Shown: one piece after another, positions 2,963 to 60,703 of the stretch | Position numbering within the stretch: the stretch's first letter is position 1 | How the letters are laid out: each line of letters starts with the position of its first letter | Assembly: GCA_964016885.1 (NCBI GenBank) | Contig: OZ024741.1 | Span: 21,948,001-22,012,000 of the forward strand | Direction: 5' to 3' | From: Eledone cirrhosa | Lineage: Eukaryota | Length of the DNA stretch: 64,000 nucleotides | Program-made: the position numbers and the translations under genes | Notes under the pieces: model-generated | What the model saw: only the letters and a program-made list of their open reading frames with translations | The model's database searches: none | Told to the model about the DNA's origin: nothing

Positions 2963-3209
2963 AAAAAATTATACTCTGCTATGTATTGAGTACCTTACTT
3001 ACTCTGGTTACCCCCGATTGAACCCGGGATACACATATCTACATCTAAATATATCTATCTAACTATATGATCAGAGCGAGAGAAAGAAAAGAAGGGAAAC
3101 AAAAATAACCAACAATTCACCACCAAATGCGACAGTTGGTCACACATCACATCACAAGGGTCAACGGAAATTTTTGAGGCAAACCAATACGCTCGCAGCA
3201 TTGCAGCGG

Positions 3210-3545
3210 GTGGTGGTGAGGCTGAGACGTTGAACAACCAAACACTCTCACGGGAATCACCTGACACCTCTGTATGGTCGGGAGTTCGAGGCTGAGGCAG
3301 TGAAACAACCAAGTACCCTAACGTGTATCACCTGACACCTCGGTAAGACCGGGTGATGGCGAGGCTAAGGCGTTGAAACAACCAAGTACCCTCACGGGTA
3401 TCACCTGACACTTCGGTAAGGTCGGGTGATGGTGAGGCTAAGGCATTGAAACAACCAAGTACCCTCACGTATATCACCTACCACCTTGGTAAGGCCGGGT
3501 GATGGCGAGGCTAAGGCGTTAAAATAACCAAGCACCCTGACGGGT
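3210..3545. repeat. Diverged tandem repeat, ~73-bp unit, ~4.5 copies
   Basis: GAGGCTAAGGCGTTGAAACAACCAAGTACCCTCACG...TCACCTGACAC recurs with ~73 nt period (e.g. 3361 and 3434); related monomer at ~43510-43560. Confidence 0.8.
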
Positions 3546-3658
3546 GTTAAGTATAATTTTATTTACTGAATGATAACTGGATTATTTTCTATATGCCAGA
3601 AAATAATAGTTTTTTAAATAAATCTAACATTTTCAATAATTATCTTTTCTTATTTCAG

Positions 3659-5359
3659 GCATCACTGCTGGAGATGCTGAGGATTCCCTGTTACGTGGCT
3701 TACTACTATGTTTAGGTTCGATGTGGGCTGCAGTTGGTGTTTACAATGTCACAAGAGATATCGTTAGACCCTTCACCATTCAATGGTCAAATGCAGCCCA
3801 CGAAGCTCTTTTTCCAGGCTATGGAGCTTTCTTCTTTATATTCCTTATTTTTGTTTATGGTTCTATTCTGCATCAAGCAACCTTTACAGCCGTTCTTTCT
3901 TTCGGTCTCTTCTTGTCCACCATTTTTGAAATAGCCTCGTTATGGCGTCCAGTACATTTGAGTGCCGGAGCGTATTATGTCCTACTTTCTGCATTAGTGA
4001 TGTATATGATGTGCCAAAAGTTAATTAGTAAATTTAAAGGAGGAGATTTCAAGATAGTACAGAAGAGAAAAACCTCTGATCCAGACGTCTCCAATGATTA
4101 CACTATCGTTGGGTATTCAATGGAAGTAATAGTTTTTGCTGTGTTTGCTAGTCATGTGACTGGAGCTACAACTGCTGCTAATAATGCCTTCATGTGGGTT
4201 GGTGCGGCGGGATGTTTTCAAGCTGTCTGTGGCGTTGTGGCTTTACGTAGAAATGACCCTTATTGTGGTTGCTTCTTTACTCTATATGGCACATTCTGGT
4301 GTGCTATAGCATATAATCTAGCTCTTGATCATTTTTCTGGCACAAACGACCTGCCATTACTAGCTGTATTCATCTTCTTCACATTAACATTTTTACTGGC
4401 TAGTTTGGTTTCCATAGCCCGAGAAATGTTCCACGCTCTACAGAATATTCTGCTATGTATCTTCTGCATTGCTTTCTGTGTTGATGGCGTCCAAGGTCAT
4501 TTTCTTGGTGGAATTAGTTGGGTTTGTTTTATATTTTCGCTCTACGGACTTGCAGCTCACATGAGTCGTATGAAACAAACCCCTTATAAACTACCGTTAG
4601 GTCGACGACCTTTTGATCGGTTTCAAGTACAACAGAGCCTTAAGAAACATCTCAGCTGCTTTGCAAAATGTTTATACAGGCGAGACACCAAGCAAGATGG
4701 CGACGGGCTGTTCTCGACTGAATTTTCTGCTATGGGTTATTCAAAATATATTGAGCTTGACACTATTGGCTTTGCTGTCAATGCAGTTTCGGCATTATCA
4801 ATTTTGTGGATTCCTGCAAATTTCAAACTTCTCTCCATGCCATGGGCAACCATACTTGGTGGAGTGGCACAGTTTACTGTCGGCTGTATAGGGTTTGCTC
4901 GGGGTCTCACATTCGAAAGTTGTTCGTTTGTTATATTTAGTTCTATGTGGTTGATTCTTGGAACTGCTCGTAGTCTTGGAACGTTGGCCCAAGACAATTC
5001 CGTGGCTATGTGTGTGGGGAGTATTTCTTATATGATCATTCTTTTACTTCTTATAGGACTTTCTCTGGTCGTAAGCAAAACCTGGTTCCTAGTCACTTTT
5101 CTGTTTGAACTAATCGCATTGGCATTTTTACTCAATATTCTGGCTGTTCCTTCTTACGAAGCATATGAAATAATTGTGGTGCTTCTATTCACTGCTGTTT
5201 GTGTTTATGGTTTCTTAGCTTCTGCTTTAAAGGTTGTTTGGGGCCGAGATATTCTCCCAATGGGAAACCCAATCATAGATGTCAGTTTCCTTCATTCTCA
5301 GGGCCATAAAGCATTCTGGGCAGACGCTCAAAAACAATCTGGTGTCAAAGCAATAGCAG
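3659..5359 (+). CDS. Coding exon A of a SatP/YaaH(x3)-YrdC fusion gene: polytopic membrane region with tandem GPR1/FUN34/YaaH-like repeats
   Basis: Acceptor tttcag at 3653-3658, open frame to donor GCAG|gtaagg (5359/5360). Repeat motifs GAAGCFQAVCGVVALRRNDPYCGCFFTLYGTFW and GGVAQFTVGCIGFARGLTFESCSFVIFSSMW resemble SatP [51 protein letters not shown] and YGFLASALKVVWGRDILPMG resemble the SatP C-terminal YLAMGEVLNEQFGRTVLPIG. The exon starts in phase 1, so upstream exons probably lie elsewhere. Confidence 0.85.
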
Positions 5360-5407
5360 GTAAGGAACCCCTTTTCCCCCTATTTTATCTAGCGACCCCA
5401 TTATATA

Positions 5408-5555
5408 TAAGGAGGCAAATTGTCAGAATCGTTAAAACGTCGGACAGAATGCCTTGCGGTATTCGTTCCGGCTTTCTGAGCTCTGAGTTCAAATCCTGCC
5501 GAGGTCAGCTTTACCTTTCATCTTTCCGAAAGTACCAGTCATGTACTGGGGTGGA
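5408..5555 (+). mobile_element. tRNA-derived SINE in intron
   Basis: CTGAGTTCAAATCCTGCCGAGGTCAGCTTTACCTTTCATC core; accounts for the run-on tail of ORF 3721-5622. Confidence 0.7.
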
Positions 5556-6446
5556 CTCATCATCTATATCTCTGCCTCACTTCCTCTCTTTATCATTCTC
5601 TCTCATTTTCTGGACGAAATAAGCTGTAAAAGGATCAACAACAACAACAACAACAACGACAACTACTACTACTACTACTACTACTACATAATTAACCCAC
5701 CACAGCAACAACAGCTATATAATTAAACAATAATTACTACATAATTACACATAATTAAGACCAATTTTATTGGCCACTACATATATATATACAAACACAC
5801 ACATGACAATACTAAGCTAATTTTACCATGTAGAAAGTGTATATACAAACATCAGTTCAATATTAAATTTCGGGTCTCTAATAATCGTCCCCTCCCCCTG
5901 CTAATTAATTTTCAGATGTTTTCCACCCCCCTCGCTCTTATTCCATCTCCCCCGCTTATTAAATTTTACTAATCTATCTCCGACGAAATTTTATTTTAAG
6001 TGGTAGCATTCCTGCGACAATTAATTTTTTTTATGCATTAAAAAACATTATACATGACAATAAAAGTACATTACTAGAAATCCCATATGTTATAAAATAA
6101 ATAGGATGGGTTGGGGTCTCAATATGTAAACTAAACGACTAATTTTTTTTTTTTAAATCAACGGAGACAACCTAGTAACATTACCGATTTTCCAACAACC
6201 CTCCACTTATTCTAACCTTCCTCGTTTATTCCCCTTCCTCCGCTTTTTCCAACTCCATGCTTATTCCACCCCCGCTTATTCCAACTCAACCTGCTATTCC
6301 AAACTGCTTATTTCACCCACCCCTATTATTTGGGACCCGAGAGTACCTCAAATATTATTTCATTTAAAATAATTATTGGAAAGTAAACAAAATAGAATTC
6401 TACGGAATTTCCCGAAATGAACTTAAACCGTGTTTCATCTTTCCAG

Positions 6447-6535
6447 ATATCATGAACCGGGGTGGGATTGTTGGTATTCCAACTGACACTGTTTATGTAT
6501 TGGCAGCCGCAGTAAAATTCCCAGAATCTGTCGAA
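6447..6535 (+). CDS. Coding exon B: start of YrdC/Sua5 domain (DIMNRGGIVGIPTDTVYVLAAAVKFPESVE)
   Basis: ttccag| acceptor and |gtaagt donor, phase 1 to 0; GGIVGIPTDTVY is the characteristic N-terminal YrdC/TsaC motif; absent from the ORF track because it is short. Confidence 0.9.
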
Positions 6536-7620
6536 GTAAGTTAATTTTTCTTTACATAAGATACATTATATAAATTGACCCAAACATGTAGCGGCGACGT
6601 TGTGACACACGGCGTGTCTTGGACAATTTGGAGAAAGTGTCTTTACCACAGCTTCGGGTCAACATAAGCATTGTGTGTAAAATTGGTTAGATAAAAACCG
6701 TGTGGTTGCCCATTGGATGGACTGTAGCTGTAATTTAAAGGGCCCATCCTTGTTACATAATGTGTTTCACCTATCAGACTGTGGAATTGCGTGAAGGGTT
6801 ACATATTGTGGCGGCGATGTATTTGTTTTACAAGGTTTTGATAAGAAATCTTGTGTTGAAACATATTGTTGTTATTAAGAACCTTGAGAACTTATATTTA
6901 TATTTATATTTTTAACTGTTGGTCAATCAATGATAAACATTGATTGCCAACTGAACTATTTATAGAAATATAAAAATATACTGAAACGAAAACCAAACCC
7001 AACAGTCTGTGTGTTTTACTATTTTTGGCAATATTAGGACAACCTTCCCAAATATAACAGTTACATATTCTGTCTAGCCCACCAGAGTGCGGAATTACGT
7101 GAAAGGTACACGTGTTTGCGGAATATTCAACCAGTTACACCTTAATTCAGCTGCTAGACTGTAGTTGTAATTCAAAGGCCCAGCCTTGTTACATGTGTCT
7201 CACCTATCATACTGGGAAATTATTTGAAAGGTTACATATTGTGGCAGTGATGTGTTTATTTTGCAAGTTTTTTGATAAGAAATCGTGTGTTGAAACATAT
7301 ATTTGGAGAGGGTCATGTTGTCCTCATATTGCCAACAACAGTAAAACACACTCACTGTTTGGTCTGGTCTTCACTTCAGTTTCAGTATATTATTTAAGAA
7401 CTTTGATAAATTATATTTCTATTTCTAACTCTTGGTCAATCAATGATAAACATTAAAATACCAATCACAAAACATTAATCATACGATATAAATATTGTGA
7501 TAGTGACCTTGAAGAAGGTTATACAAATATTATAAAAGAGACTACTTAGTAAAATGTTTGATTTCCATTGTCAGCTGTTGTGTAATTCTATTTTTATCTC
7601 TATACCTTTATTGAGTCTAG

Positions 7621-7780
7621 AGAGCATACTTAACCAAGAAACTTGCTGAAGACCGGCCTATGTCTATGTGGATTTCCAATGTTAACCAACTGGCTGCTGG
7701 ACGAGAACAGTTCGGTGAGATGCTCTGGGCCTTCATGAACGCTGTATGGCCCTCTACGATATCTTGTGTGGTAAACAAAG
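7621..7780 (+). CDS. Coding exon C: YrdC domain (RAYLTKKLAEDRPMSMWISN...AFMNAVWPSTISCVVNK)
   Basis: tctag| acceptor, |gttaat donor, phase 0 to 1; aligns with the TsaC IYxxKxRPxxKPL...WPGPLT segment. Confidence 0.85.
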
Positions 7781-8212
7781 GTTAATTCAATATTTATACA
7801 TATATTATTTTTTATAGTTGCCAGGATCGTTAGAATGTCGAATAGAATGTCTTGCAATATTAGTTTCGGCTCTCTGCGCACTGTGTTTATGTCCTTGCAA
7901 GGTCGATAACAAAAATACTACCAGACCTATCATCAAAAGTTTGTTTTGATTTAGCAGCCAACCCTCGCCCGAAATGAGCCTGATAAATCAGACCTATGAT
8001 CATAAGAATCTCAGCATTGACCATGATTGGATTTAGACCTTGGAGGCCCCGAGGCATTTCAGGTTTGGGGGTCCTGGGGCACTTCAAATCCCCCCCCCCC
8101 CAAAAAAAAAATTAGAATACGCAGCAAACCATCGATTTTACATATTTTACATAAAGTTAGCTTGGTGTAAGTAATTGGAATTGAAAAGTTATACATACAG
8201 GTATTAAATTAT

Positions 8213-8236
8213 AACCCTAACCCTAACCCTAACCCT
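8213..8236. repeat. Short interstitial (TTAGGG)n-type tract
   Basis: TAACCCTAACCCTAACCCTAACCC. Confidence 0.6.
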
Positions 8237-8357
8237 CCTAAAACTAAAAAGCCCAGCTGAGAGCACAAATAAATTGCTAGATAATTTTTTCTCAAATAAA
8301 AAGTGCGGTGGATTAGCAGAGCTGGAGGAACGTCGGACAAATGCTTGGCAATTATTA

Positions 8358-8505
8358 ATTATTGTTTCTACTTTTGGCACAAGGCCAGCAATTATCTCAG
8401 TGTATTACTGGTACTTTATATTATCGACCCCCATAAGGATGAAAGGCAAAGTTAACCTCGGCGGGATTTGAACTCAGAATGACAAGGGCCGTAACTCTAT
8501 ACGTC
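8358..8505 (-). mobile_element. tRNA-derived SINE body whose 5' head continues into the 50-bp minisatellite
   Basis: Reverse complement: CTGAGTTCAAATCCCGCCGAGGTTAACTTTGCCTTTCATCCTTATGGGGGTCGATAATATAAAGTACCAG. Confidence 0.8.
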
Positions 8506-9650
8506 AAAGCATGGCGTCTGACCCTCTACCGACACTGCCAATCCACCACCCTTACAAAGCATGGCGTCTGACCCTCTACCGACACTGCCAATCCACCACC
8601 CTTACAAAGCATGGCGTCTGACCCTCTACCGATACTGCCAATCCACCGCCCTTACAAAGCATGGCGTCTGACCCTCTACCGACACTGCCAATCCACCACC
8701 CTTACAAAGCATGGCGTCTGACCCTCTACCGATACTGCCAATCCACCACCCTTACAAAGCATGGCGTCTGACCCTCTACCGATACTGCCAATCCACCACC
8801 CTTACAAAGCATGGCGTCTGACCCTCTACCGATACTGCCAATCCACCACCCTTACAAAGCATGGCGTCTGACCCTCTACCGATACTGCCAATCCACCACC
8901 CTTACAAAGCATGGCGTCTGACCCTCTACCGATACTGCCAATCCACCGCCCTTACAAAGCATGGCGTCTGACCCTCTACCGATACTGCCAATCCACCGCC
9001 CTTACAAAGCATGGCGTCTGACCCTCTACCGACACTGCCAATCCACCACCCTTACAAAGCATGGCGTCTGACCCTCTACCGATACTGCCAATCCACCACC
9101 CTTACAAAGCATGGCGTCTGACCCTCTACCGATACTGCCAATCCACCACCCTTACAAAGCATGGCGTCTGACCCTCTACCGATACTGCCAATCCACCACC
9201 CTTACAAAGCATGGCGTCTGACCCTCTACCGATACTGCCAATCCACCACCCTTACAAAGCATGGCGTCTGACCCTCTACCGATACTGCCAATCCACCGCC
9301 CTTACAAAGCATGGCGTCTGACCCTCTACCGACACTGCCAATCCACCACCCTTACAAAGCATGGCGTCTGACCCTCTACCGATACTGCCAATCCACCGCC
9401 CTTACAAAGCATGGCGTCTGACCCTCTACCGATACTGCCAATCCACCACCCTTACAAAGCATGGCGTCTGACCCTCTACCGACACTGCCAATCCACCACC
9501 CTTACAAAGCATGGCGTCTGACCCTCTACCGATACTGCCAATCCACCGCCCTTACAAAGCATGGCGTCTGACCCTCTACCGACACTGCCAATCCACCACC
9601 CTTACAAAGCATGGCGTCTGACCCTCTACCGATACTGCCAATCCACCGCC
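8506..9650 (-). repeat. Minisatellite, 50-bp unit, ~23 copies, derived from the SINE 5' head
   Basis: Unit ATGGCGTCTGACCCTCTACCGA(C/T)ACTGCCAATCCACC(A/G)CCCTTACAAAGC; its reverse complement matches the GGTGGATTGGCAGTATCGGTAGAGGGTC head of SINE copies at ~27845, ~50085 and ~52445. Confidence 0.95.
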
Positions 9651-9669
9651 ATTATTAATTATGGGTTTT

Positions 9670-10330
9670 ACATTCTGAGTTTAGATCTCACCGAAGTCAA
9701 CTTTGCCTTTCATCCTTCCGGGGTCGATAAAACAAAGTTAAGGACTAAGGTTGATTTTATCAACTTTGCTTTCCCACCCAAATTTGCTGGCCTTGTGTTC
9801 AGTTTAGAAATTAATATATGAGAACGGTGGATTGGCAATATCGGTAGAGCGTCGAACAAAATGTATGGCGGTATTTATTTACAACGTTTAACTTACTGAG
9901 TTCAAATCTTGCCGAGGTCAACTTCGTCTTTCTTCCTTCCGGGTTGGATAAAATAAAGTATTGGGATCGATACAATCGATTTTCCGTTCCCCCAAATTGC
10001 TGGCCTTGTGCCTGAGTTAGAAACGATTATTCCAGACAAAATTGTTTGGTTTCATTCCGAGACAAAACTGTCAAGTTCCTTTTTGAATGAAAAACACATC
10101 ACTATTGTTATCTTACGAGAAGAGATAGACTGCCATAATTGGTGAAGCCTCGGATTAAATTCTATTGCAGTATTTGTTCTGGCTCTGTTGTGAGTTCAAA
10201 TCCCATGAGATCAATTTTGTCTTTCCTACCTCCGGATCGATAAAATAAAGTACATGTTATGTAGAGAGGTTGATTTAATCAATTTTGACCTTGACCCCCA
10301 AATATACTGGTCTTGTGTCTAAATAGAAAT
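9670..10330 (+). mobile_element. Cluster of about three tRNA-derived SINE copies
   Basis: Repeated TGAGTT(C/T)AAATC...CAACTTTG...GATAAAATAAAG...GCTGGCCTTGTG cores at ~9676, ~9897 and ~10191. Confidence 0.65.
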
Positions 10331-10361
10331 CAATCTTGCCATTTTATTATTTCTTGTTTAG

Positions 10362-10567
10362 GACCATGGTTAGATAGCCTGGGAGTTGGTTATGCTGGCA
10401 AATACATTGGTCGACCCGACAGCATCGCAGTACGCATGCCCGATAATATGGTGACGTCATTTTTAATTGATCACACTGGTCCTGTATCAACCTCATCCGC
10501 TAATCCGACTGGTGAAGCTGACACCACACATCATCTACAGGTTATTGCAAAGTTGGGATTGAAAAAT
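10362..10567 (+). CDS. Coding exon D: YrdC domain (GPWLDSLG...SIAVRMPD...GPVSTSSANPTGE...)
   Basis: tttag| acceptor, |gtaagt donor, phase 1 to 0; IAVRMPD and TSSANPTG correspond to the YrdC/Sua5 motifs xAVRxP and TSANxSG. Confidence 0.9.
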
Positions 10568-11879
10568 GTAAGTTGGTTATTCATTTTTACCTCTTAGTCA
10601 GGGAAGGAAAGGCAGCTTTTACGATACTTTTTTTTCCAATATTTTTGCGATTATTGGGAGGAAAGGAAAGAAGATATCCTTGGAGATCTGTTTGAATGCT
10701 TGTAACAGACTGAACCTCTCTAAAAGTACCTAATGACCAAGTACATGGGTTAAACCAGGCGATGGATTAAGTCTACCGCTCATAAACACAAGACGAAATG
10801 AGGCGGAACAAATTCCGACAATTCACCGTCGCGGATTGATACTTTAATTTATCGACAGTGAAAGTAGAAAATGCAAAGTTGACCTCGCCGGGATTTGAAC
10901 TTTAAACGAAAAAAGAAAGAAAAAATCAACACTGCAAAAACATTGCAAAGAATTTCGCCCGCTGCTCTATCAACTCGGCCTGGATTGGTACTATAATTTA
11001 TTAACCACGAAAGAATGGTAGACAAAGTTAACTCCAGCAGAGTTTAACAATTAAAATCTAAAATTTGTCTCAACCCGATCACCAGGCCGGTGCTTATTCA
11101 GGTTTCCGTGACGTGAAGCGACTGAGAATACAAGACTTCCCCTGGACAGGACGCCAGTACATCGTAGGGTTAAACCCCAAGCTATTGTTGGTACTACTGC
11201 AAGTGATTTTCTCTTACGCTCTTACGAGTCTACCATTTAGCTACATTAAACTGTGGCATTACTTACCTCTTTCACAGAAAAGTATCATTGACATGGATGG
11301 AATCCAGATACCTCAAACCTGCACTCAACAGAAATATCGAAAAACATTCTCCAATGGGTCAAACCAGCCATAACTTCTTGGACAGCATAAAACCTTTGCA
11401 TTCCTCCGTAGTCGTTGATGACAGGAAACTAAAGCGTTAGAACTCACTTCTCTGCAATACTTGCAATACTATATTCGCTCATCTTTTCCTTGTTGTTTAA
11501 AAGGATCCTTAATCACATGAGGCTCGAAAGATCTACGAAGATAATAAATGTAACGCTCTCTCTTTTAGAACAAACCATAGAAGGAAAATTTCAAATCATT
11601 GATTCCTTCATTCTAATGTTTTATTTAACTTAAGACTTCGTCCCACAAGAGAAAAAACATTGCAGGAGCTGCTGCAGCAATCTGCCAGCTCCAGCATCCA
11701 GTAATCAGAATAAAGGAGAGAGGCATCAAATCCAAACTCACTATTTTCAATTCGGTATTCGTGACAACCCTTACCTAAGGTCTTGGGTAATGACCGAAAG
11801 AATACAAGCAACTGAAATGGGGTTCCCCAAAGGGTCTTTGGTGTAACGTTACTTGATAGAGTACATAGTTCTGAAATCA

Positions 11880-12139
11880 AATTGGACAGATTTTATCAGA
11901 AAAAACCAACTGACTGGATACCCAGGGGTAGACCCCAAGCAAGATGGTTGGATAACATCCATGATCTTGGCTGGTCTCGCTTGGGGATCCAGCTGGATCA
12001 GTTGGAGACGGTTGCTTCTGACAGGACCCACTGGAAGGGGTGTTTGAGGACTCTGCCTCCACGACATATCAAGAAGAAGAAGAAGAAGAAGAAAAAGAAG
12101 AAGAAGAAGAAGAAGGAGGAGGGGGGGGGGGAGAAGAAG

Positions 12140-12170
<31 letters not shown>
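11880..12170 (+). mobile_element. 3' end fragment of an RTE-like LINE with (AAG)n tail
   Basis: Translation IPRGRPQARWLDNIHDLGWSRLGI...VASDRTHWKGCL resembles RTE-clade C-termini; directly followed by (AAG)n. Confidence 0.6.
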
Positions 12171-12171
<1 letters not shown>

Positions 12172-12292
12172 TCTTAGCGTAAAAAGAATTTCTAATATTT
12201 GTTTTATGGTGATCTGACATATCTGAAAAGCAACTCTACAATTATTTTAGTTAATATTAACTAATTATCTCATGATTTTCTTTATTATTCAG

Positions 12293-13462
12293 TGTGATGG
12301 AATCTTATGTGATGGACCTTCCTTTGCTAACTCTGCTTCCACAGTGGTAGACTGTCGAAAGATCGATGAAGGTAAGATCGGCTTTTTCCGAATTGGACTC
12401 GAGCCGAAGTCTCGAGTTGAAGAAATATTTGAGAGAATCCAAACGCAATTTAAGAATAAAGCAGCATCTCATCGGTCTTCCATACAAAGTACGAGTGAAA
12501 CTTTGGACAGTGGTGTAGATATTCGGGCATCAAATCCAGGATCAGTCAACTTAGAATTAGAAGGACATATCAATGATGCTTTTGATGACAGTGATGATGG
12601 AGATCATAGTTCAAATAATCGGAATATCAAAGCCGATTGTTTTGTTGGCGATATAAAAAGCGATACACAAAATCAGTTTGAAGATGATTTTAATAAATCA
12701 ACAAATGTTTTAGGAAAGTGGTCAGAACAAAAACCTGAATTAGAAAACACCAAAAACGACAACAAACCTCAAATTAAAGGTTTGGTTGATAATCTTGATC
12801 GTATTTTATCAGAGGCAGAGAAACAGAATAAAGAACTTGATAACATAGATGTTCGTAGTTCAGAGATAATAAATATTCCAGAAACTGAGAACAATATAAA
12901 CAACGGGGATGTTACAAATGAACTAATCTCGGACGACGAACCATTAACGTCACTGAAATCACGTAAACGTCGCCAGCTGCAAAGTCAAATTAACACACAT
13001 ATTCTAAACAGAGGTCAACAACTGAGATCAACTGATAGTCCACCGAGTCCAGGAAGTTTGGCTGAATACAAAAACTCACCAGACACATTTAAAACGACTT
13101 TGGAAGTAAACTTAAACCAATACCAACATGTTATCGTTGATGACTCACCGAGTGAAACACTGGCTGGAGAGGAAGAGAGAACAACATATAATGTAGGAGA
13201 ATCGACAAATGGGATCAAGAAGAAAATTGTACCTATTTTTAATTTTTCCTCCAAGAATAATAACTCATTTGTCTTAGAGCGAGAAAATGAAGCCATTAGT
13301 CAGAACCTAACTCCTCCATTTCCTCAAGATCAGGAAGATGATTTGGTCAACGTCAATGGAAATACTTTTGTCACCAGAGATGGTAATAGTACACAAGACC
13401 GTTTAAAAAGACTCTCCACTCATGAACGTCCAGAATTCTTTAAGCAAAGAACCGAGTTGTAG
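12293..13462 (+). CDS. Terminal coding exon E: end of YrdC domain (CDGILCDGPSFANSASTVVDCR...FFRIG) plus ~340-aa acidic/Asn-rich low-complexity tail ending RTEL
   Basis: ttcag| acceptor in phase 0; DGILCDG...STVVD...RIG matches the YrdC D.ILDGG...STVVD...LR.G pattern; long open frame to TAG at 13460-13462. Confidence 0.88.
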   Translation, partial: CDGILCDGPSFANSASTVVDCRKIDEGKIGFFRIGLEPKSRVEEIFERIQTQFKNKAASHRSSIQSTSETLDSGVDIRASNPGSVNLELEGHINDAFDDSDDGDHSSNNRNIKADCFVGDIKSDTQNQFEDDFNKSTNVLGKWSEQKPELENTKNDNKPQIKGLVDNLDRILSEAEKQNKELDNIDVRSSEIINIPETENNINNGDVTNELISDDEPLTSLKSRKRRQLQSQINTHILNRGQQLRSTDSPPSPGSLAEYKNSPDTFKTTLEVNLNQYQHVIVDDSPSETLAGEEERTTYNVGESTNGIKKKIVPIFNFSSKNNNSFVLERENEAISQNLTPPFPQDQEDDLVNVNGNTFVTRDGNSTQDRLKRLSTHERPEFFKQRTEL

Positions 13463-15490: not shown

Positions 15491-15690
15491 GATAGAGTGA
15501 GACACGCTTCACATCGGCTCTGCTATTCTATCGTAATTTACCCTTACTATAGTAAGTACCAGTGAATTTTTTCAGTGCAACACATTTGGAACACTTACCC
15601 CTGTTATTTAGGGAAACATTTTTACATTTACCCCCTTTTTAGGGGGTAAAATAAATAACTATTTTTCTGTAAAACTTCTTTCTTGGCCGC

Positions 15691-17538
15691 ATGGCGGGAA
15701 ATATGGCAGACATCTCTGCCATTAGCTCTGCCACGCCCCCCAAGTCTGAAGAACAAAAAATGGATACAACAAAACTAGACAACGAAACAAACAAGGAAAA
15801 TGAAAAAACAAATGTTACGGAAAATGAGCAAACGGAAAACAAACAAACAGAAAACAAGAATACAAAAAACAACAAGGCAACTTTCGCCCAGACAACAAAA
15901 AAATCAATCACATATACACCTATTGACTTAACTGCCGCCAGAGAGAAACTGGCAGAAGCAAAAAAGCACATAGTCTTGGGGGAGAACGGAATGTTTTCCA
16001 TTAACCCCCCCCCCCCCATAATTCAAGAAAACGAGACAAGCAAACACTGTTATGTTTAGAACAGTCCTAAACAACACAAGGAAGCCAGCACAGCCCACCC
16101 AAACAGAGATAGAGTTGGTCCTAAAAGACCATATGAAGAATATTCTCTTCATACGAAAGGACCGACTCTATGGCAGCATTTCTGTTTTAATAAAAGACAA
16201 AGAAACAGCACAGAGGCTTTCCCTAAGCCCACTCACATCAACAGCATACAGTTTCTATCCCTCCTACATGGGTAGAAGAACTCAGAGAATCAAAATACAG
16301 ACAATGCTGCCCACAATGGACTTCTGGTGGGCTATTGCTGGCTTCATAGACATGGGCGAGGACACAGTGCTGTCAATGGGGAAGGCATCTGGAGATGCGT
16401 TCCTGGGAATGGGCCTCGACCTACTAGTACAAATGAGGCCTGAAAGAATAGCGCAAATCCCGGATCGCATCTGGCTGGATGACCTCACCTCAATATATAT
16501 AATTGTAGAGGGGAGAAGACCAGCATGCTATTCATGCATGGAAAGGGGACACGTTAAGGCTAACTGCCCGAATCGTATCCCCCAAAAAGGACTATTGCCC
16601 ACACCCACCACAAACAGTACACCAACACCACCCACCTCCAAAAATACACTAACACCACCAACACACACAGCAAACAAAATACAGACACCACCAACCACAA
16701 GCACAACACAAATATCACCACCACCAGCACCAAACACAAGCTCCACACAAAAATCACCACCACCATCACCAACCACAAGCACAACACAAACATCACCACC
16801 ACCATCACCAACCACAAGCACGACACAAACATCACCACCACCACCACAAAACACATTCCAAACAAATAATTAAAAAAAACAGCAACAATTCTACCCCTCC
16901 CGCAAAAAAAACAACCAGACACCACGTCCCTCCCACCTAGCGCTGAAGAGTTTCCCCCAACTTCTGAAGAAGAAGGAGGAGAAGCCTTCAGACAAGTTAA
17001 AAGGAAAAAACGAAAGCACACACCCAGCACACCACAACAACAAATAACCCACGCACAAACACCAACTCCAATCAAAAACACCCCACCCTCGACAAACAAA
17101 AATAAATCTGCGCCTCCCCTCTTCGAAACATTGACAGGATCACAAAAAAAGACTTTACAATACACATATAAATAAAGAAAACAAAAAAACTGTTTAAATT
17201 AATAAACAATAGCCCTTTGGTGCAGACCGAAGGGCCAAACTTTATCTCAACAGAGAACTTTACTCATTTAAAAATGATAAAGGTCCCCCTGGACCTTTAT
17301 CGTTCCTTAAAAGAACAATTTAAACAGGACATGAGCCCCCCCCCCCCCCTGTTTAAAACCGTTAAATCGCGTCCTCTTGAAAGATTTCCCCATAACCTCC
17401 CCTCTCTCTGACACAACTCCAAATACCCCAACCCCACCACACTCGGATACCCCCACACCACCACAAAACATCCCTCCACCCAACACACCCGACCCCATGG
17501 AAATTACACAACCCGGACTCCGGGACGCGGAGAGGTAG
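15691..17538 (+). pseudogene. LINE ORF1 (Gag-like, zinc knuckle CYSCMERGHVKANC, Pro/Thr-rich tail), frameshifted
   Basis: ORF pieces 15691-16059 and 16052-16873, then a tail ending MEITQPGLRDAER*; at least one break at a poly-C run (~16005-16017); homologous to copy 2 ORF1. Confidence 0.8.
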
Positions 17539-17578
17539 GTGCTTTTCTTTCTTCACTTTCAACACCAAAACAGATCAA

Positions 17579-20500
17579 TTGAGAGTTGGTTGTTTGAATA
17601 CGCGTGGCCTGGGCTCAGCTTGGAAGCAAGCAAAGCTTCTAAGTGACCTCAGGTCACGAAGTATAGATGTGATGGTTGTTTGCGAGAGTCGGATCAGCAG
17701 CGTGCGACAGTTGGCTCCCGCCTTCGATGACTTTGAGATGCATGCATCTCTCTGTCAACCCGGAGGTGGGGGTGGGGTTGCCGTACTGCTGGATAAACGT
17801 CTGGCTCTCGACGTACAGATTGTTCACTCGGGCCCGGGGGGTCGATTACTGGTGCTGGACGTCGGAAGCGGTGAAGGCGGGGCTTTCAGACTGGTTGGTC
17901 TTTATGCCCCCTTCGGGGCTGAAAGAGCCGACTTCTTCCAGCGTCTGGAGACTTTTCTAGGAACGTCGCGTTCTCTGCTTTTAGTGGGGGACTGGAATGG
18001 AATCCTAGATGCGCGTTGGGACTATGCAGGGGAATGTCCCGATAGAGGGGGGTGTAGCAGCCTCAATGGGTTACTCGATCGATTCGACCTGGTCGATAGA
18101 TTTCGACTAAATTTTCCAACTGTGCCAACCTGGACTTGGGCAAACCGCAGTGGTCAATCTAGATCGTACCTAGATAGGTTTTTGGTTAGGAGTAAGGATA
18201 GGGACGTATTTAGTTGTCCAGAATTGCTCATGGTTGGCTATTCAGATCACAAATTAGTGACCTGTGTGGTCAACCTTGATAGAACGCATAGACAGGGTCC
18301 CGGTTACTGGAAGATGAACTTGTACTTGTCGGCAAAGGAAGCTTACAGGAACCGGATTAGTAGCTTAGTTAAGATGCGGTTGACGGGAGCGATCGTCAAC
18401 AGCAGGTGGTGGGTATCTCTAAAGAGAGAGATTAAAGTAAGTTCGATAGGTTACAGTAAGGAACTAGCGGCGAATAGAAATAGGAGGGAAAGGGAGTTGA
18501 CAGATAAACTAGAAGAGGCGATTAGGAGCGGAGACGTGGCCAGAGTGTTAGCGTCGAGAACGGCGTTGAGCCAGTTCTTTGACGCGAAGCACGAAGGCTG
18601 CGTTGTCCGAAGTAAAATACGTGCTTTAGGAAACGAGGGGACCAAAACTGTTAGCTCGGCACGCGTGACAGAAGCCAAGAGTGGGATTAAATCCACCATT
18701 CGGTCTTTGCGAGACCAGGATGGACGGGTGATCCTTGAACCTGAGCGGATGTGCGAGGCCTTTCAAAGGCACTTTGTTCGACTGTTCGGAGGGGGCGGGG
18801 GGCCGGACGGGGATGTGGACTTCGGTCCATACCTCGACGGCCTGCCGCGTGTTTCGAGCGGCGAAGCGGAGTGCTACGAAAGGCCAATCACAGCCACTGA
18901 AATCGGGGAAGCGCTCAGCCAATGCAGCAGACGCAAATCTCCGGGTCTCGATGGTCTACCATACGAACTTTATTTAGCTATGCCGGTCTTGTTCTCCGAA
19001 CTCCTCGAAGCTGTCTATTGCAACTGGCAACAGAACGGGAGAATTCCCTGTTCTGTTACCAAGGGCGTAGTCACGCTAGTGAGGAAGGACGAGAGCAAGG
19101 GGGACGACTTAAGTAACTTTAGGCCCATAACTCTGCTGAATGCAGAGTTAAAGATTTTGGCCAAGGTGTTAGCGAAGAGGTTGGCGCTTGTGGTGGGTGG
19201 CTTGGTGGGAGACGCGCAGACATGCGCTATCCCGTCCAGGTCCATTCACGACAACCTCCACCTCATGCGATACATCGTAGAGAGGGTTGGGAACGAACCC
19301 GGCTTTGGTGGGGCCCTGATCAACTTGGATCAATCTAAGGCGTTCGATAGGGTCGACCATGGTTACCTGGATGCGGTGCTAGCGGCGGCGGGCTTCGGAC
19401 CCGTTTTCAGGGGCTGGATTTCTGCCATCCACAGTGGCAACATCTACTCTAGGATTAAAGTAAACGGCTACCTCTCGGAGCCGTTTCAAATCACCCGGTC
19501 CATCAGACAGGGGTGCCCCCTCTCCTCCCTTCTGTACGTATTGACTCTCGAGCCACTGCTGCGGAAGTTGGAGTTGCTGCGGGGAATACCCCTGGAACCG
19601 GGATTGCACAAAGCGGTCTCGGCCTATGCCGATGACGTAACAGTAATGGTGGCGGACGCCTCGGAAATCGGGGCGATCGCCACCCTACTGGAGGAATACG
19701 AAAGGCTGACGGGAGCTAGGCTGAACCGGGACAAGTCAGTCGGTTTGCAACTCGGAACATGGAGGGGCAAACCGATGCCGTTAGACGGTGTCGTCGGGCG
19801 GTGGACGGAGGGCCCGGTGAAGCTGCTCGGGGTCTGGTTCGGACCGGACCTCCAGGTGGAGAAGAATTGGGGCGAGGTGACGAGCAGGGTGTTTGCGCTG
19901 ACCCAGAAGTGGGCCAAGTGCAAACTATCACTGAAAGGTCGGGCGGAGGTGACGAACGCTTACATAGCGTCCGTCATCTACTACCGCCTGACCGTCGTGC
20001 CTTGCCTCAAGGAAACGCTCACCATCATGGAGCGCATGCTCTTCCAGTTCCTCTGGAAGAAGCGGCCTCCCATGGTGAGGAGATCCATCTGCTGCCAGCA
20101 CCCTTCGAAAGGAGGGCTGGGTATGCCGTGGCTGTTGATGCGTAGGCACGCATTGAGGCTACGGCATCTACAGGTATTCCTCACCGGTCAACCGGTGTGG
20201 GCCCCGTTTGTGAGGCGAGCCTTCCCACAGCTCGTCTCGCTCACCGAGCTGCAATCCTGGGTGAAGCAAAGACCGAGAAAACTGGGCAACTGGCACACCG
20301 AGTGTGCCCAGGCGCTCACGGCTATCTGGCAAGCGGACCCGACTGTCAGTGGAGAATCCACCTCGACATTCTATAGAGGGCTGGTGGCTAGCAGGGGCGA
20401 CGACACCCTTGGAGAGTCGCTAGGCATGGAGGAGGACGAACTGGCCAGCCTGTTCGGTAGAACTTTCGGCCCGGGACCCATGGATAACTTCCAGAGGTCC

Positions 20501-21014
20501 CTAGCCTGGCAGTGCTACCGGGGGGGGGGGGGCTCTGCCCGTTCGAGAAAAGCTCTACAGACACGGGCGCCCGGGCAGGGATCCCGCGAAAAAGATCTGT
20601 CCCAGATGCGTGCGCGACGAGGAAACCGTTGCGCATGCACTGGTACACTGCCCGGGCGTTGCCGATCTGTGGGGCTACGTCGAACGACTGCTGTCGCGTG
20701 TGGCGCCGATTCGATTGACCGCCGAGTCTGTGGTGAACATCAAGCCGCCTCCTCCCTTCAGAAATGAAGCAGAGGCGGTCTTTCTGTGCGTAATAGCCAT
20801 GATGAAAGAGGTTGTGTGGTGGACGCGCCTGAAAGGTCTGAGGTCGGGTGACTTTCTCTCCGGCCATCACCTGGTTTACTTCTTCCGATACCACTTCGGA
20901 AGAAGGATCAGGATGGAGAGAGAAGTGCTTGGCCCCAGACAGTTTTATGAAAGGTGGGTGAAAGAAGCGAGAATGGCTCGTGTAAATGGGCCTTCTCTCT
21001 ACATTGTTCTGTAG
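17579..21014 (+). CDS. LINE ORF2: APE endonuclease + reverse transcriptase + CCHC-like tail; one frameshift in a poly-G run (~20520-20532)
   Basis: NTRGL, VCES, GDWN, YLDRF and SDH (APE); KSPGLDG, FRPITLLN, DQSKAFDRV, RQGCPLS and YADD (RT); CPRC...ETVAHALVHC in the second frame. Confidence 0.92.
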
Positions 21015-28450: not shown

Positions 28451-28675
28451 CTCTATCAGACGTGTGTAACTTCGCGGAGAAGTTTCCGTTAATTTATGTA
28501 AGAAAAAAACGTGAGTTTTTAGTTAAATTTTATATCATTGTGTAACTTGACCCCCCGTCTGGACCTTCAGGTGGTGGGTCAACTCATTTTCGCCCCTACA
28601 GGGGCGGAATATCCATTTAAAAAATTTGTCTCCATTGAATCTTGGAAAAAGATATTGTAAAATTTTGATTACGTT

Positions 28676-30554
28676 ATGAACGCTGCGTCCAACGATAATG
28701 GCGGTGGAGAGGCGGTAAGACTACAAAGCTCGCAGTCAACAACGTCTTCTTCACTAGATACTATAGAGATGGAAAGACAAAATGAAAATAAAAAAACGAA
28801 TTCATATCCAAACAGCACAAATGACACCAAACAGTTCAATGACAACAAAAATAACAGCAAAACCAATAATGATGATAAAAGCAACAATGATAACAACAAC
28901 AAAGAAAAAAATAAAGACAACGCCAATAACACCAGCATCAAAGACAACAACAACACCAAGGAAAATACGGATGATACCAAGATAATGACAACACCACCAA
29001 TACGGATTCCACAAAGAAACCAAAAATCTCCTTTGCAGAGAAAGTTCAAAAGAAAGAACAATTGACATATCTCGACATAACAAATGCTGAACAACTTTTA
29101 AAGGACGCTAAGAGATATGTCACTTTCGATAAAAATGGTGCTTTCAGCATCAATTCTCCGGTAGAAATTCGCAAGGAAACTGCTCTCAAAACGATAGTTT
29201 TTTGGACAGTTACCAATTCTACCCGAAAACCAGTCCAATTGTCACAGAAAGAAATTGAACTGGTTTTCAAAAATTCAATGAATGATATTGCATTCATTCA
29301 AAGAAGCAAACTTTTTGGGAGTATTTCGGTACTCATGAAGGATCAATTGACGGCCCAAAATTACTCTGTGTCGCCAATTGTATCCAACCTGTACACCTTT
29401 TTCCCTACATACATGGGAAAAAGGACACAAAAGATCAGAAGCACGAGTGTCACACCAAAGGTGAACATATGGTGGATACTGTGCGGCTTCATCAATTTTG
29501 ATGAAGACAGAATACTGTCAGTAGGAAAGTCCCCCAGAGATGTATTCAATGGGACTAGCATTGAAGTTCTGGTGCAAATGAGCCCAGAGCGAATAGCTAT
29601 GATCCCACAGCGTATACTCCTGGACGGACTCACCTACATAAACCTTTCGGTTGAGGGTAGGCGGCCTTCATGTTACCATTGCTTTAGCAGGGGTCACCTG
29701 AGGGCTTCCTGTCCTAAACTAATGAACCAAAAAAAGGCTCTGCTGCCGACACCCATCAAAACAACACAACCACCAACACCACCACCACAACAACAACACC
29801 AACACACAAAAATAACCACAACAAACACAGTCCCACCCAACCCCACTCCACCTAAAACCACTGCAAAATCACATACAGACACAACAGCTCCCCAAGACAT
29901 ACCCCTCCCCAATCACACAGACGATACAACAGATGAGGCTATCTCGCCATCACCCAGTGAAGACGAGGGAGAACCCCATCGATCGAAAGAAAGAAAAGAC
30001 ATCACAAAAGCAAAAAACCAGCAAACACTACCACAAACATACAACCACCAACACAAACAACAAAAATATCACAAACAAAACCCCCACCTCCTGAAAACAA
30101 AATACCTACAACAAAACGAAAGCACACACAAGAACTACAGACAAAAACAAACACAACACAAGAAAATTACACTTACACTTACATAAACACTGAAAACAAA
30201 ACACTAATGGAGACCATCACGAACGACCCTTCGGTGAAAACCGAAGGGAAAACTTTCGCCCACTCTATAAAAAATAGCAAAAAACTGAACATAAAACTGA
30301 TTAGGGTCCCTATACAAACTTATAGGTCCCTAAAAGAAACATTTGAGAAGGATGTGGGTAATTCCTGCGTGAAACCACTCAACCGCGTCCTTCTCAAATG
30401 CCTCCCCACCCCAGACACCCCCATCCCACCAGACCCCACCCCACCAAACATCTGCGTCCCCACCCCGCCGGAAACCACCACCCATCCAGACAACCCCTCC
30501 AACACCTCCATGGAAATCGTGCGACCTGGTCCCCAGGAGACGAAGGGTGAGTGA
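28676..30554 (+). pseudogene. LINE ORF1 (zinc knuckle CYHCFSRGHLRASC), frameshifted
   Basis: ORF pieces 28676-29065, 29062-30186 and 30207-30554 are collinear with copy 1 ORF1. Confidence 0.8.
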
Positions 30555-30587
30555 TCTCTTTTCCTCTTTTAACTTTTCAGCAGCAAC

Positions 30588-33500
30588 ATGGCCAATATAA
30601 GAGTTGGATGTGTGAACGTACGCGGCCTGGGGATGCCCTGGAAACAGGGCAAACTCTTAAACGACCTCAGGTCGCACAGTATGGATGTGGTAGCCATTTG
30701 CGAGTCCAAGATCCACGACGAGCGACAGCTGGCCCCCATCTTCGATGACTTTGAGATCTACGCATCTCTCTGTCAACCGGGGGGTGGGGGCGGAGTTGCC
30801 GTTTTGCTGCGGAAACACCTGGGCCTCGTAACACAGACGGTACATCTGGACCCGGAGGGTCGACTGGTGGTCCTAGACGTTGACGGTAGTGAAGGTGGAG
30901 CCTTCAGGCTGGTGGCCGCATATGCCCCATCCGGGACACCGCGGCCAGACTTCTTCAAACGTCTAGAGACTTTTCTGGGAACGTCCCGCTCCTTGCTTTT
31001 AGTGGGGGACTGGAATGGAATCCTAGATGCACGTTGGGACTATGTGGGAGCATGTCCCTATAAAGGGGGGTGTAACAGCCTCAAACAGTTAATCGACCGA
31101 TTTGACCTGGCCGATAGATATCGACTAGATTTTCCGACTGCGCCACTGTGGACGTGGAGTAATCGTAGCGGAACATCTAGATCGTACCTAGATAGGGTTC
31201 TAGTTAGAAATAAGGATAGGGACATGTTAAGCTGTCCACAAATGTTCATGGTTGCCTATTCAGATCACAAACTAGTGACCTACATGGCCAACCTTGATAG
31301 AACCCATAGACAAGGACCCGGCTACTGGAAGCTGAACTTGTCGTTACCGACAAGCAAAGCTTACAGTAGACGGATTAGCACTTTAGTTAAACAGCACTTG
31401 ACAGGGGCCATTGTCAACAACAGATGGTGGTACTCTCTCAAGAGGGCAGTTAGATTAGACTCGATAGTTTTTAGTAAAGAATTAGCGTTAGATAGAAATA
31501 GAACCGAGAAGGAACTGGTAGATAAAGTAGAAGAGGCAATTAGAAGTGGCAACGTAGCCAGCGTGCTAGCAACGAAAACGGCCTTGGACCAGTTCTTCGA
31601 CGCAAAGCACGAGGGCTGCGTTGTCAGAAGCAAAATACGTGCTCTGGGAAACGAGGGAGCCAAAGCTGTTAGCTGGGCCCGAGTGACGGAGGCAAAAAGT
31701 GGCAACAAGTCCACGATTCGGTCTTTGAAGGACCAAAACGGACGCGTGATACGTGAACCGAAACAGATGTGTGCGGCTTTTCAGCGGCACTTTGCTCAGC
31801 TGTTCGGGGGGGGGGAGAGGATATGGATTTCGGTCCATACCTCGACGGCCTACCGCGACTCTCGGACAGCGGGGCAAAGTTCTGCGAAAAGCCGATTTCA
31901 GCCACTGAGATAGGGGACACGCTGAGCCAATGCGGCAAACGCAAATCTCCAGGTCTCGACGGTCTACACTACGAATTTTACGTAGCAATGCCGGACTTAT
32001 TCTCCGGTCTTCTGGAAGCGGTCTACTGCAACTGGCAACAGAACGGGAGAATTCCCAGTTCTGTAACCGGGGGCGTGGTCACACTAATCAGGAAGGACGA
32101 GAATAAGGGGGATGACATAGGCAACTTCCGGCCCATAATTCTGCTAAACACAGAGTTACAGATTTTGGCCAAGGTGTTGGCAAAGAGGCTGGCGCTTGTC
32201 GTCGAAAACCTGGTGGGAAAAGCGCAGACATGCGCAATCCCCACCTGGTCCATACACGACAACCTCCACCTCATGCGATACATCATAGAGAGGGTAGGGT
32301 GTAAACCCGGCTTCGGTGCGGCCCTGATCAACTTGGATCAGTCTAAGGCTTTCGATAGGGTTGACCATCGTTACCTGGATGCGGTGCTCGAGGCCGCAGG
32401 CTTCGGACCCGTGTTCAGGGGCTGTATTGCTGCAATGCACAACAGCAACATCTGCTCAAGGGTCAAGGTTAACGGCTACCTCTCGGAGCCGTTCCATATT
32501 ACGGGATCCATTCGACAGGGATGCCCTCTCTCCTCCCTTCTGTACGTACTGACTCTCGAGCCACTACTGCGGAAGTTGGAGCTATTGCAGGGCATCCCTT
32601 TGGAACCGGGACTGCGGAAAGCGGCGTCGGCCTACGCCGACGACGTGACAGTAATGGTGTCGAGCGCCTCGCAAATCGAGGAAGTCGCCACCTTACTGAA
32701 AGAATACGAAAGTTTCACAGGAGCGAAGCTGAACCGGGACAAGTCCATCGGTTTGCAACTCGGATCGTGGAGAGGCAAACCGATGCCTTCTGATGGCGCC
32801 GTCGTACGCTGGACGGAAGGACCGGTAAAGCTGCTCGGGGTTTGGTTTGGTCCGGACCTCCAGGTGGAGAAGAACTGGAACGAAGTGACGGCCAAGGTGT
32901 TTGCACTCACCCAGAAGTGGGCCGAGTGCAAACTATCCTTGAAAGGTCGAGCGGAGGTGGCGAACACTTTTATAGCGTCCGCCATCTACTACCGCTTGAC
33001 AGTCGTGCCTTGTCCAGTCAAAACGCTCGCCAAAATGGAACGCGCGCTCTTCCGATTCCTTTGGAAGAGGTGGGCTCCTTTGGTGAGAAGATCCATCTGC
33101 TGCCAACACCCTTCTAACGGAGGGCTGGGGATGCCGTGGTTGACGATGCGCAAACACGCACTCAGGCTGCGGCATCTCTACGTATTCCTCACCGGACAAC
33201 CGGTGTGGGCCCCGTTCGTTAGGCGAGCCTTCCCACGACTTGTCTCGCTGACCGAGCTGCAGTCCTGGGTCTAGCAAAGACCGAGGAAAATGGGCGACTG
33301 GCACATCGAATGTGCTCAGGCGCTCACAGCCCTCTGGCAGGCGGACCCGGCGATCAGTGGAGACTCCACTTCGTCATTCTATAGAGGGTTGATCCGCAGC
33401 AAGTGCGACGACGCGCTCGGTGAAACTCTAGGCGTAGAGGAAGATGAACTGGTCTGTCTGTTCGGTAGGACCGTCCGCCCGGGACCGATGGACAACTTCC

Positions 33501-34015
33501 AAAAGTCCCTGGCCTGGCAGTGCTACCGAGGAGCTCTACCAGTTCGAAACAAGCTCTACAGACATGGGCGTCCGGGCAGGGACCCTGCAAAAAAGATCTG
33601 TCCGAGGTGCGTGCGAGACGAAGAAACCGTCGCGCACGCATTCATACACTGCCCGGGCGTCACTGACCTGTGGGGCTATGTAGAACGACTATTGTCGCGG
33701 GTGGGACCAATCCAGTTGACCACCGAATCCATTGTCATGATCAAACCGCCACCCTCCTTCAAAAACGAAGGAGAGGCGGTTTTCCTTTGTGTGATAGCTA
33801 TGGCGAAAGAGGTTGTATGGTGGACAAGGTTGAAAGGGCTGAGGTCAGACACCTTTCTCTCCGGCCAACAACTGATTCTTTTTTTCAAATACCACTTTGG
33901 AAGAAGAATCAGGATGGAGAGAGAGGTGCTGTACCCCAGCAAGTTTTATGAAAGGTGGGTGAAAGTGGCGAGAATGGCCCGAGTGAATGGGCCTTCTCTC
34001 TATATCAGCCTGTAG
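30588..34015 (+). pseudogene. LINE ORF2 (APE + RT + CCHC-like) with frameshift at poly-G ~31807-31815 and premature TAG at 33272-33274
   Basis: ORF pieces 30588-31913, 31769-33274 and 33290-34015; YADD, DQSKAFDRV, GDWN and SDH motifs; the TAG aligns to AAG in copy 1. Confidence 0.9.
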
Positions 34016-39798: not shown

Positions 39799-40097
39799 TA
39801 ATATTAATAAATGGAAACTATATTTATAAAACCATATTTATTTTATTATGTACCAAGGGTACCAACATTTTGGTACACTCTCATCAGATAAAATACAAAG
39901 GTTGTTTTACAGATGACATATTCAAAACTAGAACTTAACGTTTTGAGTTCTGTTTGAATAGTGAAGAAGAACTTCAAATCATAGGATGAATATGCTAATG
40001 AGGATAACGTTAAAATTGAAAAAGATCGTTATGTTTAGACGCTAGGTAAATTTAAATAATTATTAGGATTATTTTTTAAAGGAAAAGGAAACAGAGA

Positions 40098-41490: not shown

Positions 41491-41635
41491 TCCAGCATAG
41501 TTACATCCCTTTACGGTCTGAGTTCAAATCCCGTCGAGGTTAACTTTGCCTTTCATCCTTACGGGGTCGATAAAATAAAGTACCAGTAATGCACTGGGAT
41601 AATTGCTGGCCTTGTGCCAAAAGTAGAAACAATTA
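41490..41635 (+). mobile_element. tRNA-derived SINE body following the 45-bp array
   Basis: CTGAGTTCAAATCCCGTCGAGGTTAACTTTGCCTTTCATCCTTACGGGGTCGATAAAATAAAGTACCAG. Confidence 0.8.
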
Positions 41636-60561: not shown

Positions 60562-60703
60562 TCATTATTTCTGAAGACAGCATATATATGTGTAGGTATG
60601 TATATTCCCTCTGATAGTTTGTATAAATATTGTACATAGATCTATAGAATATGCATACCAACTCTAACACATATATATCCCAGAAACGATCGTAAAATGA
60701 TGA
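60562..60703 (+). ncRNA. Hammerhead-like motif in the 5' pLTR of the right PLE
   Basis: TCATTATTT-CTGAAGA-cagc-ATATATATGTGT...ACACATATATAT-ccca-GAAA-CGATCG-TA^-AAATGATGA. Confidence 0.6.

Follow-up and report, generated by a model that had tools for sequence, protein, structure and literature searches.

The window analyzed here, a 64,000-nucleotide stretch of the Eledone cirrhosa genome (GCA_964016885.1, contig OZ024741.1, positions 21,948,001 to 22,012,000), contains a gene, paralogue A, that fuses three membrane repeats of the AceTr carboxylate-channel type to a YrdC domain. A second fusion gene, paralogue B, is found elsewhere in the same genome. Tentatively, paralogues A and B are proposed to act together as a carboxylate channel for itaconate, or for a derivative of it, from the immune pathway of paleo-IRG1/IRG1L. 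This proposal starts from observations on the gene structure, the fold, the family, the division into A and B, the loss of an active-site arginine from A, the linkage of A and B in other species, and the co-induction of both fish orthologues with irg1l.

Paralogue A is encoded by five exons in the window and a first exon upstream of it, which together specify a protein of 1,165 amino acids. The window exons, all on the plus strand and bounded by GT-AG sites, join in frame to encode 1,107 residues and a stop codon, in agreement with the original prediction of five in-frame exons and at least ~1,100 amino acids. Nearby splice sites allow 30 in-frame combinations, so frame alone leaves the junctions unfixed, and homology was therefore used to choose the model. 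The chosen model corresponds letter for letter to the Octopus sinensis gene model (P0001) at all four in-window junctions. Exon 1, which contributes the ATG (172 nt, G000:C2:21934149-21934320), is located 13.7 kb upstream of the window. Exon A, the second coding exon (3659-5359, plus strand, 92% identity to P0001), encodes helices 3-6 of repeat 1, all of repeats 2 and 3, and the start of the YrdC domain. This domain continues through exon B (6447-6535, plus strand, PF01300 positions 3-30), with a PTDTVY motif that holds the equivalent of Thr35 of Sua5, exon C (7621-7780, plus strand), with the altered half of the active-site tetrad, and exon D (10362-10567, plus strand, PF01300 positions 95-144), with the Arg121 equivalent and the intact SxN half of the tetrad. 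Exon E (12293-13462, plus strand) completes the YrdC domain at about 12484, where the Ser181 and Arg195 equivalents are kept, and then encodes the C-terminal tail and the stop codon. The tail, of ~325 amino acids, is disordered (model predicted local distance difference test score, pLDDT, under 50) and poorly conserved: the protein matches P0001 at 91% identity over the membrane part, 99% over the YrdC domain, and 60% over the tail.

In one O. vulgaris annotation the gene is split into two, as would be expected if a membrane gene and a YrdC gene had been misjoined at the 5359/6447 junction. Such an artefact is extremely improbable and was rejected: the first YrdC strand lies within exon A, and molluscs, lancelets, and fish all have the membrane-YrdC join. 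In addition, a 4,234-nt Logan contig from a relative, presumably a spliced transcript, contains a continuous open reading frame (ORF) of 1,029 amino acids that crosses the join. Reads of three runs over window positions 3500-8150 are continuous across the exon-intron borders and show no splice joints; these reads therefore behave as DNA and are silent on expression. By sequence comparison, the E. cirrhosa channel-YrdC gene is confirmed as real.

The fold was assessed with an AlphaFold2 model of O. sinensis P0001 (54-row alignment, mean pLDDT 69.6). The model contains 18 long helices, which fall into three sets of six (residues 6-183, 203-360, and 423-584), followed by the YrdC domain at about 607-839 and the disordered tail. 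The SatP-like repeats of the original prediction are thus retained, but its count of two full repeats and one partial repeat becomes three full repeats when the upstream exon is included. Repeat 1 (window 3659-4038, plus strand; model helices 6-183) has its first two helices in the upstream exon and is divergent in clade A, repeat 2 (4096-4569, plus strand; model helices 203-360) has six helices, and repeat 3 (4756-5241, plus strand) is SatP-like and the best conserved repeat of clade A. Repeat 3 of the model superposes on SatP with a Z score of 20.3 and an rmsd of 2.6 Å for 172 residues, the window sequence of this repeat matches SatP with an E value of 0.011, and the family profiles match SatP with E values of 1.7e-9 and 6e-11. 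The SatP superposition covers repeat 3 only, and a single-sequence fold of repeats 1 and 2 gave a pLDDT of 43. Using hhalign, however, repeat 1 of clade A is tied to repeat 1 of clade B (95.9%), which in turn is tied to repeat 3 (98.0%), and repeat 2 is tied to repeat 3 (97.2%) and to repeat 2 of clade B (98.0%); the direct comparison of repeat 1 with repeat 3 is weak (1-8%). Because repeat 3 matches SatP and the other two repeats are connected to it by these profile-profile comparisons, all three are taken as AceTr-derived.

Relative to known AceTr proteins (SatP, Ady2/Ato1; PF01184), which share the six-helix fold of repeat 3, the Eledone chain holds three units and does not keep the NPAPLGL signature. 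Pfam PF01184 has no match to exon A or to P0001, so of the two profile matches anticipated by the original prediction, PF01300 is found and PF01184 is not, though the family profiles match SatP. In repeat 3, IFSSMW aligns to SYGSFW of SatP (the SY(F)GFW motif), so that one of the three positions of the FLY constriction is mapped. The repeats of clade B are nearer the AceTr signature, with EPGALGL in repeat 1 and EPMGMGF in repeat 2. The two clades also differ in which repeat is constrained. In four mollusc-fish pairs each, the identities of repeats 1, 2, and 3 are 18-21%, 17-24%, and 29-34% in clade A and 40-44%, 23-28%, and 17-22% in clade B, and the best PF01184 score belongs to repeat 3 in A and to repeat 1 in B. 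As judged from the aligned sequences, conservation is complementary: A keeps repeat 3 and B keeps repeat 1.

Exons B, C, and D each match Pfam PF01300, in the order that the gene model requires, and P0001 matches it with an E value of 1.9e-25. The soluble domain of the P0001 model superposes on Sua5, its top fold match (also by Foldseek), with a Z score of 21.1. Together with the SatP superposition and the disordered tail, this result upholds the complete YrdC fold, the tail, and the structural matches foreseen in the original prediction. The model also matches HypF (Z 16) and TobZ (Z 9). HypF, TobZ, and YciO, the last described as an inactive paralogue (PMC10321239), show that the YrdC fold is reused outside the synthesis of N6-threonylcarbamoyladenosine (t6A); those proteins are soluble, and none is fused to a channel fold.

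A KxR/SxN tetrad is described as essential in TsaC and Sua5 (PMC6004061, PMC10321239). By P. abyssi Sua5 numbering, paralogue A shares with the TsaC/Sua5/YRDC family (PF01300) the tetrad Lys56, the SxN half, and the residues Thr35, Arg121, Ser181, and Arg195. In contrast, it is membrane-tethered, and Arg58 is replaced by Leu, Asn62 by Arg, and His67 by Trp. In exon C, the relevant plus-strand codons are those of the kept tetrad Lys (7636-7638), the Arg-to-Leu site (7642-7644), and, four residues on, the clade-specific Arg (7654-7656). Four of the five Thr-binding residues (Thr35, His67, Arg121, Ser181, and Arg195) are kept, and the His67 position is variable in clade B too, as it is in the soluble YRDC of Eledone. 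The loss of Arg58 extends over clade A, in which this position is L, Q, D, or A and the Asn62 position is Arg in 18 of 18 scored rows (20 rows, two set aside for deletions at the site; the degenerate frog sequence P0052 and fragments lacking YrdC were left out). Arg58 is kept in 123 of 123 scored rows of clade B (131 rows, eight of which lack the anchor motif; the rows are related, not independent) and in all eight marine microbial rows. The YrdC domain of paralogue A is 53-60% identical to that of fish and is far more conserved than the repeats.

Based on these residues, paralogue A is probably not a canonical threonylcarbamoyl-AMP (TC-AMP) synthase. A housekeeping t6A synthase identity was rejected, given the lost tetrad Arg and a separate soluble YRDC gene (G000:C18:30173297-30175499) with intact K-x-R and SxN. 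For the same two reasons, coupling of paralogue A to t6A chemistry is unlikely. A related proposal, raised by the original prediction and by a published description of the family (PMC13316224), is that a TC-AMP synthase, still active, receives its bicarbonate or threonine through the channel. Sua5 as the top fold match and the kept Thr35, Arg121, Ser181, Arg195, and SxN residues are in line with this, but besides the lost Arg and the soluble YRDC, the induction of both fusions and not of yrdc in infected fish and the lack of the family in therian mammals make substrate supply for t6A quite improbable. In UniRef, many fusions (the P0001, P0005, and P0010 clusters) carry the name 'Threonylcarbamoyl-AMP synthase', which for clade A is probably a mis-annotation.

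This architecture has been described before. Ghasemi et al. (bioRxiv 10.1101/2025.05.26.656167; iScience 2026, PMC13316224) describe three Ato domains joined to Sua5/YciO/YrdC in vertebrates 'except mammals' and note two clades. They propose a SatP-like ring built from two protomers, suggest that a few protostome sequences arose by horizontal transfer, and assign no function. The Eledone gene has the same arrangement of three Gpr1/Fun34/YaaH units and a Sua5/YciO/YrdC domain as this 'Vertebrate Ato' fusion, but is a mollusc gene with a disordered tail, which makes it a new molluscan representative of a family that was described recently and has no assigned function. The suggestion in the original prediction that the architecture lacked a functional description therefore holds for the function and fails for the architecture itself. 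The terms catalytic, heterodimer, synten-, irg1, and itacon- have no occurrence in the main text of PMC13316224, and octopus, mollusc, and platypus have no match in its supplementary text file, though its tree figures may include such sequences. Neither the A/B enzyme/pseudo-enzyme split nor the IRG1L tie was found in the literature searched, and no link of the fusion to itaconate transport was found among the open-access listings searched.

Two clades are also recovered here, from quick trees of 24 and 17 rows. Clade A contains the Eledone gene, gastropods, scallops, a lancelet, and fish si:ch211-153b23.4, whereas clade B contains molluscs, lancelets, fish 153b23.3, amphibians, reptiles, birds, and platypus. 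Eledone A groups with Astyanax 153b23.4 (Shimodaira-Hasegawa-like approximate likelihood ratio test support of 99-100; 34% identity over 803 columns) and is orthologous to the vertebrate clade. Approximately unbiased (AU) tests reject a mollusc-only clade (p 4e-68) and a chordate-only clade (p 2e-11), and this rejection of grouping by phylum places the A/B duplication before the mollusc-chordate split. The trees show one discord, with lancelet B placed among the molluscs. Horizontal transfer from vertebrates was rejected, as both clades occur widely in molluscs, a pattern consistent with vertical descent. Clade B is almost without a tail, and the tail of clade A is not conserved. A frog sequence (Pyxicephalus, P0052) is A-like; its branch is long and its YrdC site completely degenerate.

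A third clade comes from marine sources, one of them MMETSP, with no A/B split seen. These marine, probably microbial-eukaryote, members (P0038, P0040, P0043, P0055, P0177, and P0181, from MMETSP, Logan, JGI, and ENA) have the same repeats, a YrdC domain with an intact tetrad, and an additional domain of GAF-like appearance at the C terminus, and they extend the family beyond animals. The GAF-like label comes from one marine member (feature score 0.95, a lead; no Pfam GAF match).

The Eledone genome also contains a full clade B gene (G000:C2:148322953-148330659, minus strand; loci L002, L011-L013, L016, L018) with three Ato repeats and a YrdC domain with intact K-x-R, which is the orthologue of fish si:ch211-153b23.3. 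In nine species both paralogues were recovered (Nucella, Mizuhopecten, Pecten, Patella, Astyanax, Candidula, Lottia, Argonauta, and O. bimaculoides), and in all nine the A and B records give the same scaffold length. The locus numbers of A and B are consecutive in four of them, Nucella (ACOMHN_011663/011662), Mizuhopecten (LOC110456033/034), Pecten (LOC117325260/261), and Astyanax (AMEX_G12829/12828), five apart in Patella, and non-adjacent in O. bimaculoides.

The tie to IRG1L is provided by fish. In a zebrafish infection dataset (PMC6980646), the log2 fold change is 6.04 for 153b23.3 (B), 5.81 for irg1l, 5.68 for zgc:174917 (PhyH-like), 4.05 for 153b23.4 (A), 3.79 for acod1, 3.08 for 153b23.5, 1.50 for 153b23.7 (adjusted p 0.2), and 0.27 (not significant) for yrdc. 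The orthologues of A and B are thus induced about 16- to 65-fold with irg1l, and yrdc is not. In a second study, irg1l, 153b23.3, and 153b23.5 are reported as hubs of one module (PMC11140123), and in a third they are among the responsive genes (PMC8877790). A preprint on IRG1 evolution reports that IRG1L makes itaconate and occurs in platypus but not in therians, and it places a 'YrdC' gene beside paleo-IRG1/IRG1L in a cluster whose domains include VOC, 2Fe(II)oxy, and GAT. Genes without a human homologue are labelled there by domain, and the word 'transporter' does not occur in the preprint text; its unnamed 'YrdC' gene would be the channel-YrdC fusion. The range of IRG1L matches that of the fusion family, which among the matches listed comprises molluscs, lancelets, fish, amphibians, reptiles, birds, and platypus; there is no therian among the 120 of 253 homologue rows listed. 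The platypus member of clade B (P0226) shows that the family, like IRG1L, is not missing from all mammals.

Two IRG1/ACOD1-like genes are present in the Eledone genome, on C21 at 24.25 Mb and 34.15 Mb (L004-L007, L024-L026, L055; E 6e-31 to cis-aconitate decarboxylase). An exon of a PhyH-type dioxygenase lies 13 kb upstream of one of them, on the opposite strand, and part of the IRG1L neighbourhood therefore survives in Eledone. No DJ-1/PfpI, glyoxalase, or GATase match was recovered near A, B, or the IRG1-like genes in searches by family, a result to be read as a lower bound. In Pfam, 150 of 624 candidate ORFs from 400 kb of flanks gave matches to transposon and zinc-finger domains, a single weak RRM, the exons of the IRG1-like genes, and the PhyH exon, a coverage that does not establish an absence of cluster genes. 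Similar C2H2 zinc-finger ORFs are located upstream of both C21 IRG1-like copies, which suggests a duplicated block.

Based on their expression and distribution, the A/B pair probably serves the IRG1L pathway. A gated channel or a substrate-coupled enzyme, as raised in the original prediction, may still apply, with the evidence now directed to the IRG1L/itaconate pathway. In the published hypothesis of Ghasemi et al., two protomers would close a six-unit ring like that of SatP. An A+B heterodimer is suggested by the complementary repeats, the linkage, and the one-sided loss of Arg58, and in a head-to-tail ring of this kind the conserved repeat 3 of A would adjoin the conserved repeat 1 of B; that the ring is A+B is nonetheless put forward with some reserve. 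A complex prediction for Argonauta A (4-598) and B (6-405) scored 0.03 against a mark of 0.34, was made without alignments or control folds, and counts neither way. Without TC-AMP synthesis, the YrdC domain of A would act as a ligand-binding, gating, regulatory, or scaffold module, and the intact domain of B would bind ATP and may be catalytic or activate the substrate. Located in immune or barrier cells, the ring would let through a small dicarboxylate that belongs to the IRG1L pathway. Succinate is carried by SatP, and Ato proteins are reported to accept di- and tricarboxylates after minor changes to the pore (PMC13316224); a possible, if somewhat doubtful, cargo is itaconate or a tailored product. 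The composition of the ring, its cargo, direction, and location, and the role of each YrdC domain are all points that we infer.

The same pair might instead be a general acetate, lactate, or succinate channel made of separate homodimers, with the IRG1L link left over from an old tandem duplication and shared enhancers. Tandem paralogues can stay neighbours without binding each other, octopus A and B are far apart, and the marine microbial members form one clade without the split. This explanation is unlikely, as it does not account for the complementary repeat conservation and the one-sided Arg loss, nor for the strong induction with irg1l and the matching absence from therians. A biosynthetic adenylation step has other points in its favour: clade B keeps the tetrad in all scored rows, HypF and TobZ are among the fold matches, VOC, 2Fe(II)oxy, and GAT domains are in the cluster, and irg1l, zgc:174917, and 153b23.3, 153b23.4, and 153b23.5 are induced together. 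Against it, the cluster is scattered in the Eledone genome and the tetrad of A itself is broken, and this step is regarded as fairly unlikely.

Several observations weigh against an A+B channel for itaconate. The NPAPLGL(M/S) signature of helix 1 is not kept in clade A (ELDTIGF in repeat 3), and with this signature degenerate a pore is not assured. Arg58 and Asn62 of Sua5 contact the same pyrophosphate (PMC6004061), and the invariant Arg at the Asn62 position could replace the lost Arg58, in which case A may stay active; because the shifted Arg could restore phosphate binding, 'altered' is a safer description of this domain than 'dead'. The adjacency of A and B is taken from locus numbers and scaffold lengths, not coordinates, and in Eledone the two genes (C2:21.9 Mb and C2:148.3 Mb) are on one contig but 126 Mb apart, and both are unlinked to the IRG1-like genes on C21. 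Many immune genes rise together in infection, acod1 included; the authors of the IRG1 preprint saw no obvious functional clustering and do not name their 'YrdC' gene. Finally, the GAF-like tail of marine members fits sensing as well as transport. In a sensor, or transceptor, the repeats would bind a carboxylate without passing it, and the YrdC domain and tail would relay the signal. The degenerate signature in A, the far better conservation of the YrdC domain, and the GAF-like lead in a marine microbial member point this way. Animal members, however, have no output domain, B being nearly tail-less and the tail of A unconserved, and a sensor is judged more unlikely still than a general channel.

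Other features of the window are repetitive. A tandem array of a 50-bp unit (x23) occupies window 8505-9654 in the intron between exons C and D, with a related array on the minus strand near 40035-41510, and a 73-bp array (x4.7) lies at 3207-3545. Two related copies resembling non-long-terminal-repeat retrotransposons (15673-21014 and 28661-34015, plus strand) have ORF1-like, endonuclease, and reverse-transcriptase-like frames with frame breaks, as judged from translations only. Two broken reverse-transcriptase-like element copies, also labelled from translation, lie on opposite strands at 57160-63001.

The A/B pairing and the active-site split join the paper on the Ato fusion and the preprint on IRG1 evolution, which are mutually silent, and descent from before the mollusc-chordate split replaces the suggestion of horizontal transfer for the protostome members. 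In its fullest form, the preferred reading of an A+B itaconate channel describes a defence pathway of ancient origin, arranged much like an operon (IRG1L decarboxylase, 2OG-Fe dioxygenase, VOC, and GAT), in molluscs, lancelets, and egg-laying vertebrates. Its membrane step would be a heterodimeric six-pore SatP-type ring, in which B with an active YrdC domain and the pseudo-enzyme A couple ATP-dependent activation or gating to the export of itaconate or a new itaconate-derived antimicrobial, the whole module having been lost in therians. As a whole this is speculative and unlikely to hold in every part. Whether a bacterial-type acid channel exports itaconate or its product in the immunity of fish and shellfish is now directly testable, and as zebrafish has both genes, induced with irg1l, the test is simple. 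If true, the proposal would bring to light a metabolic gene cluster in metazoans, a channel that pairs an enzyme with a pseudo-enzyme, and a role for the YrdC fold that does not involve tRNA.

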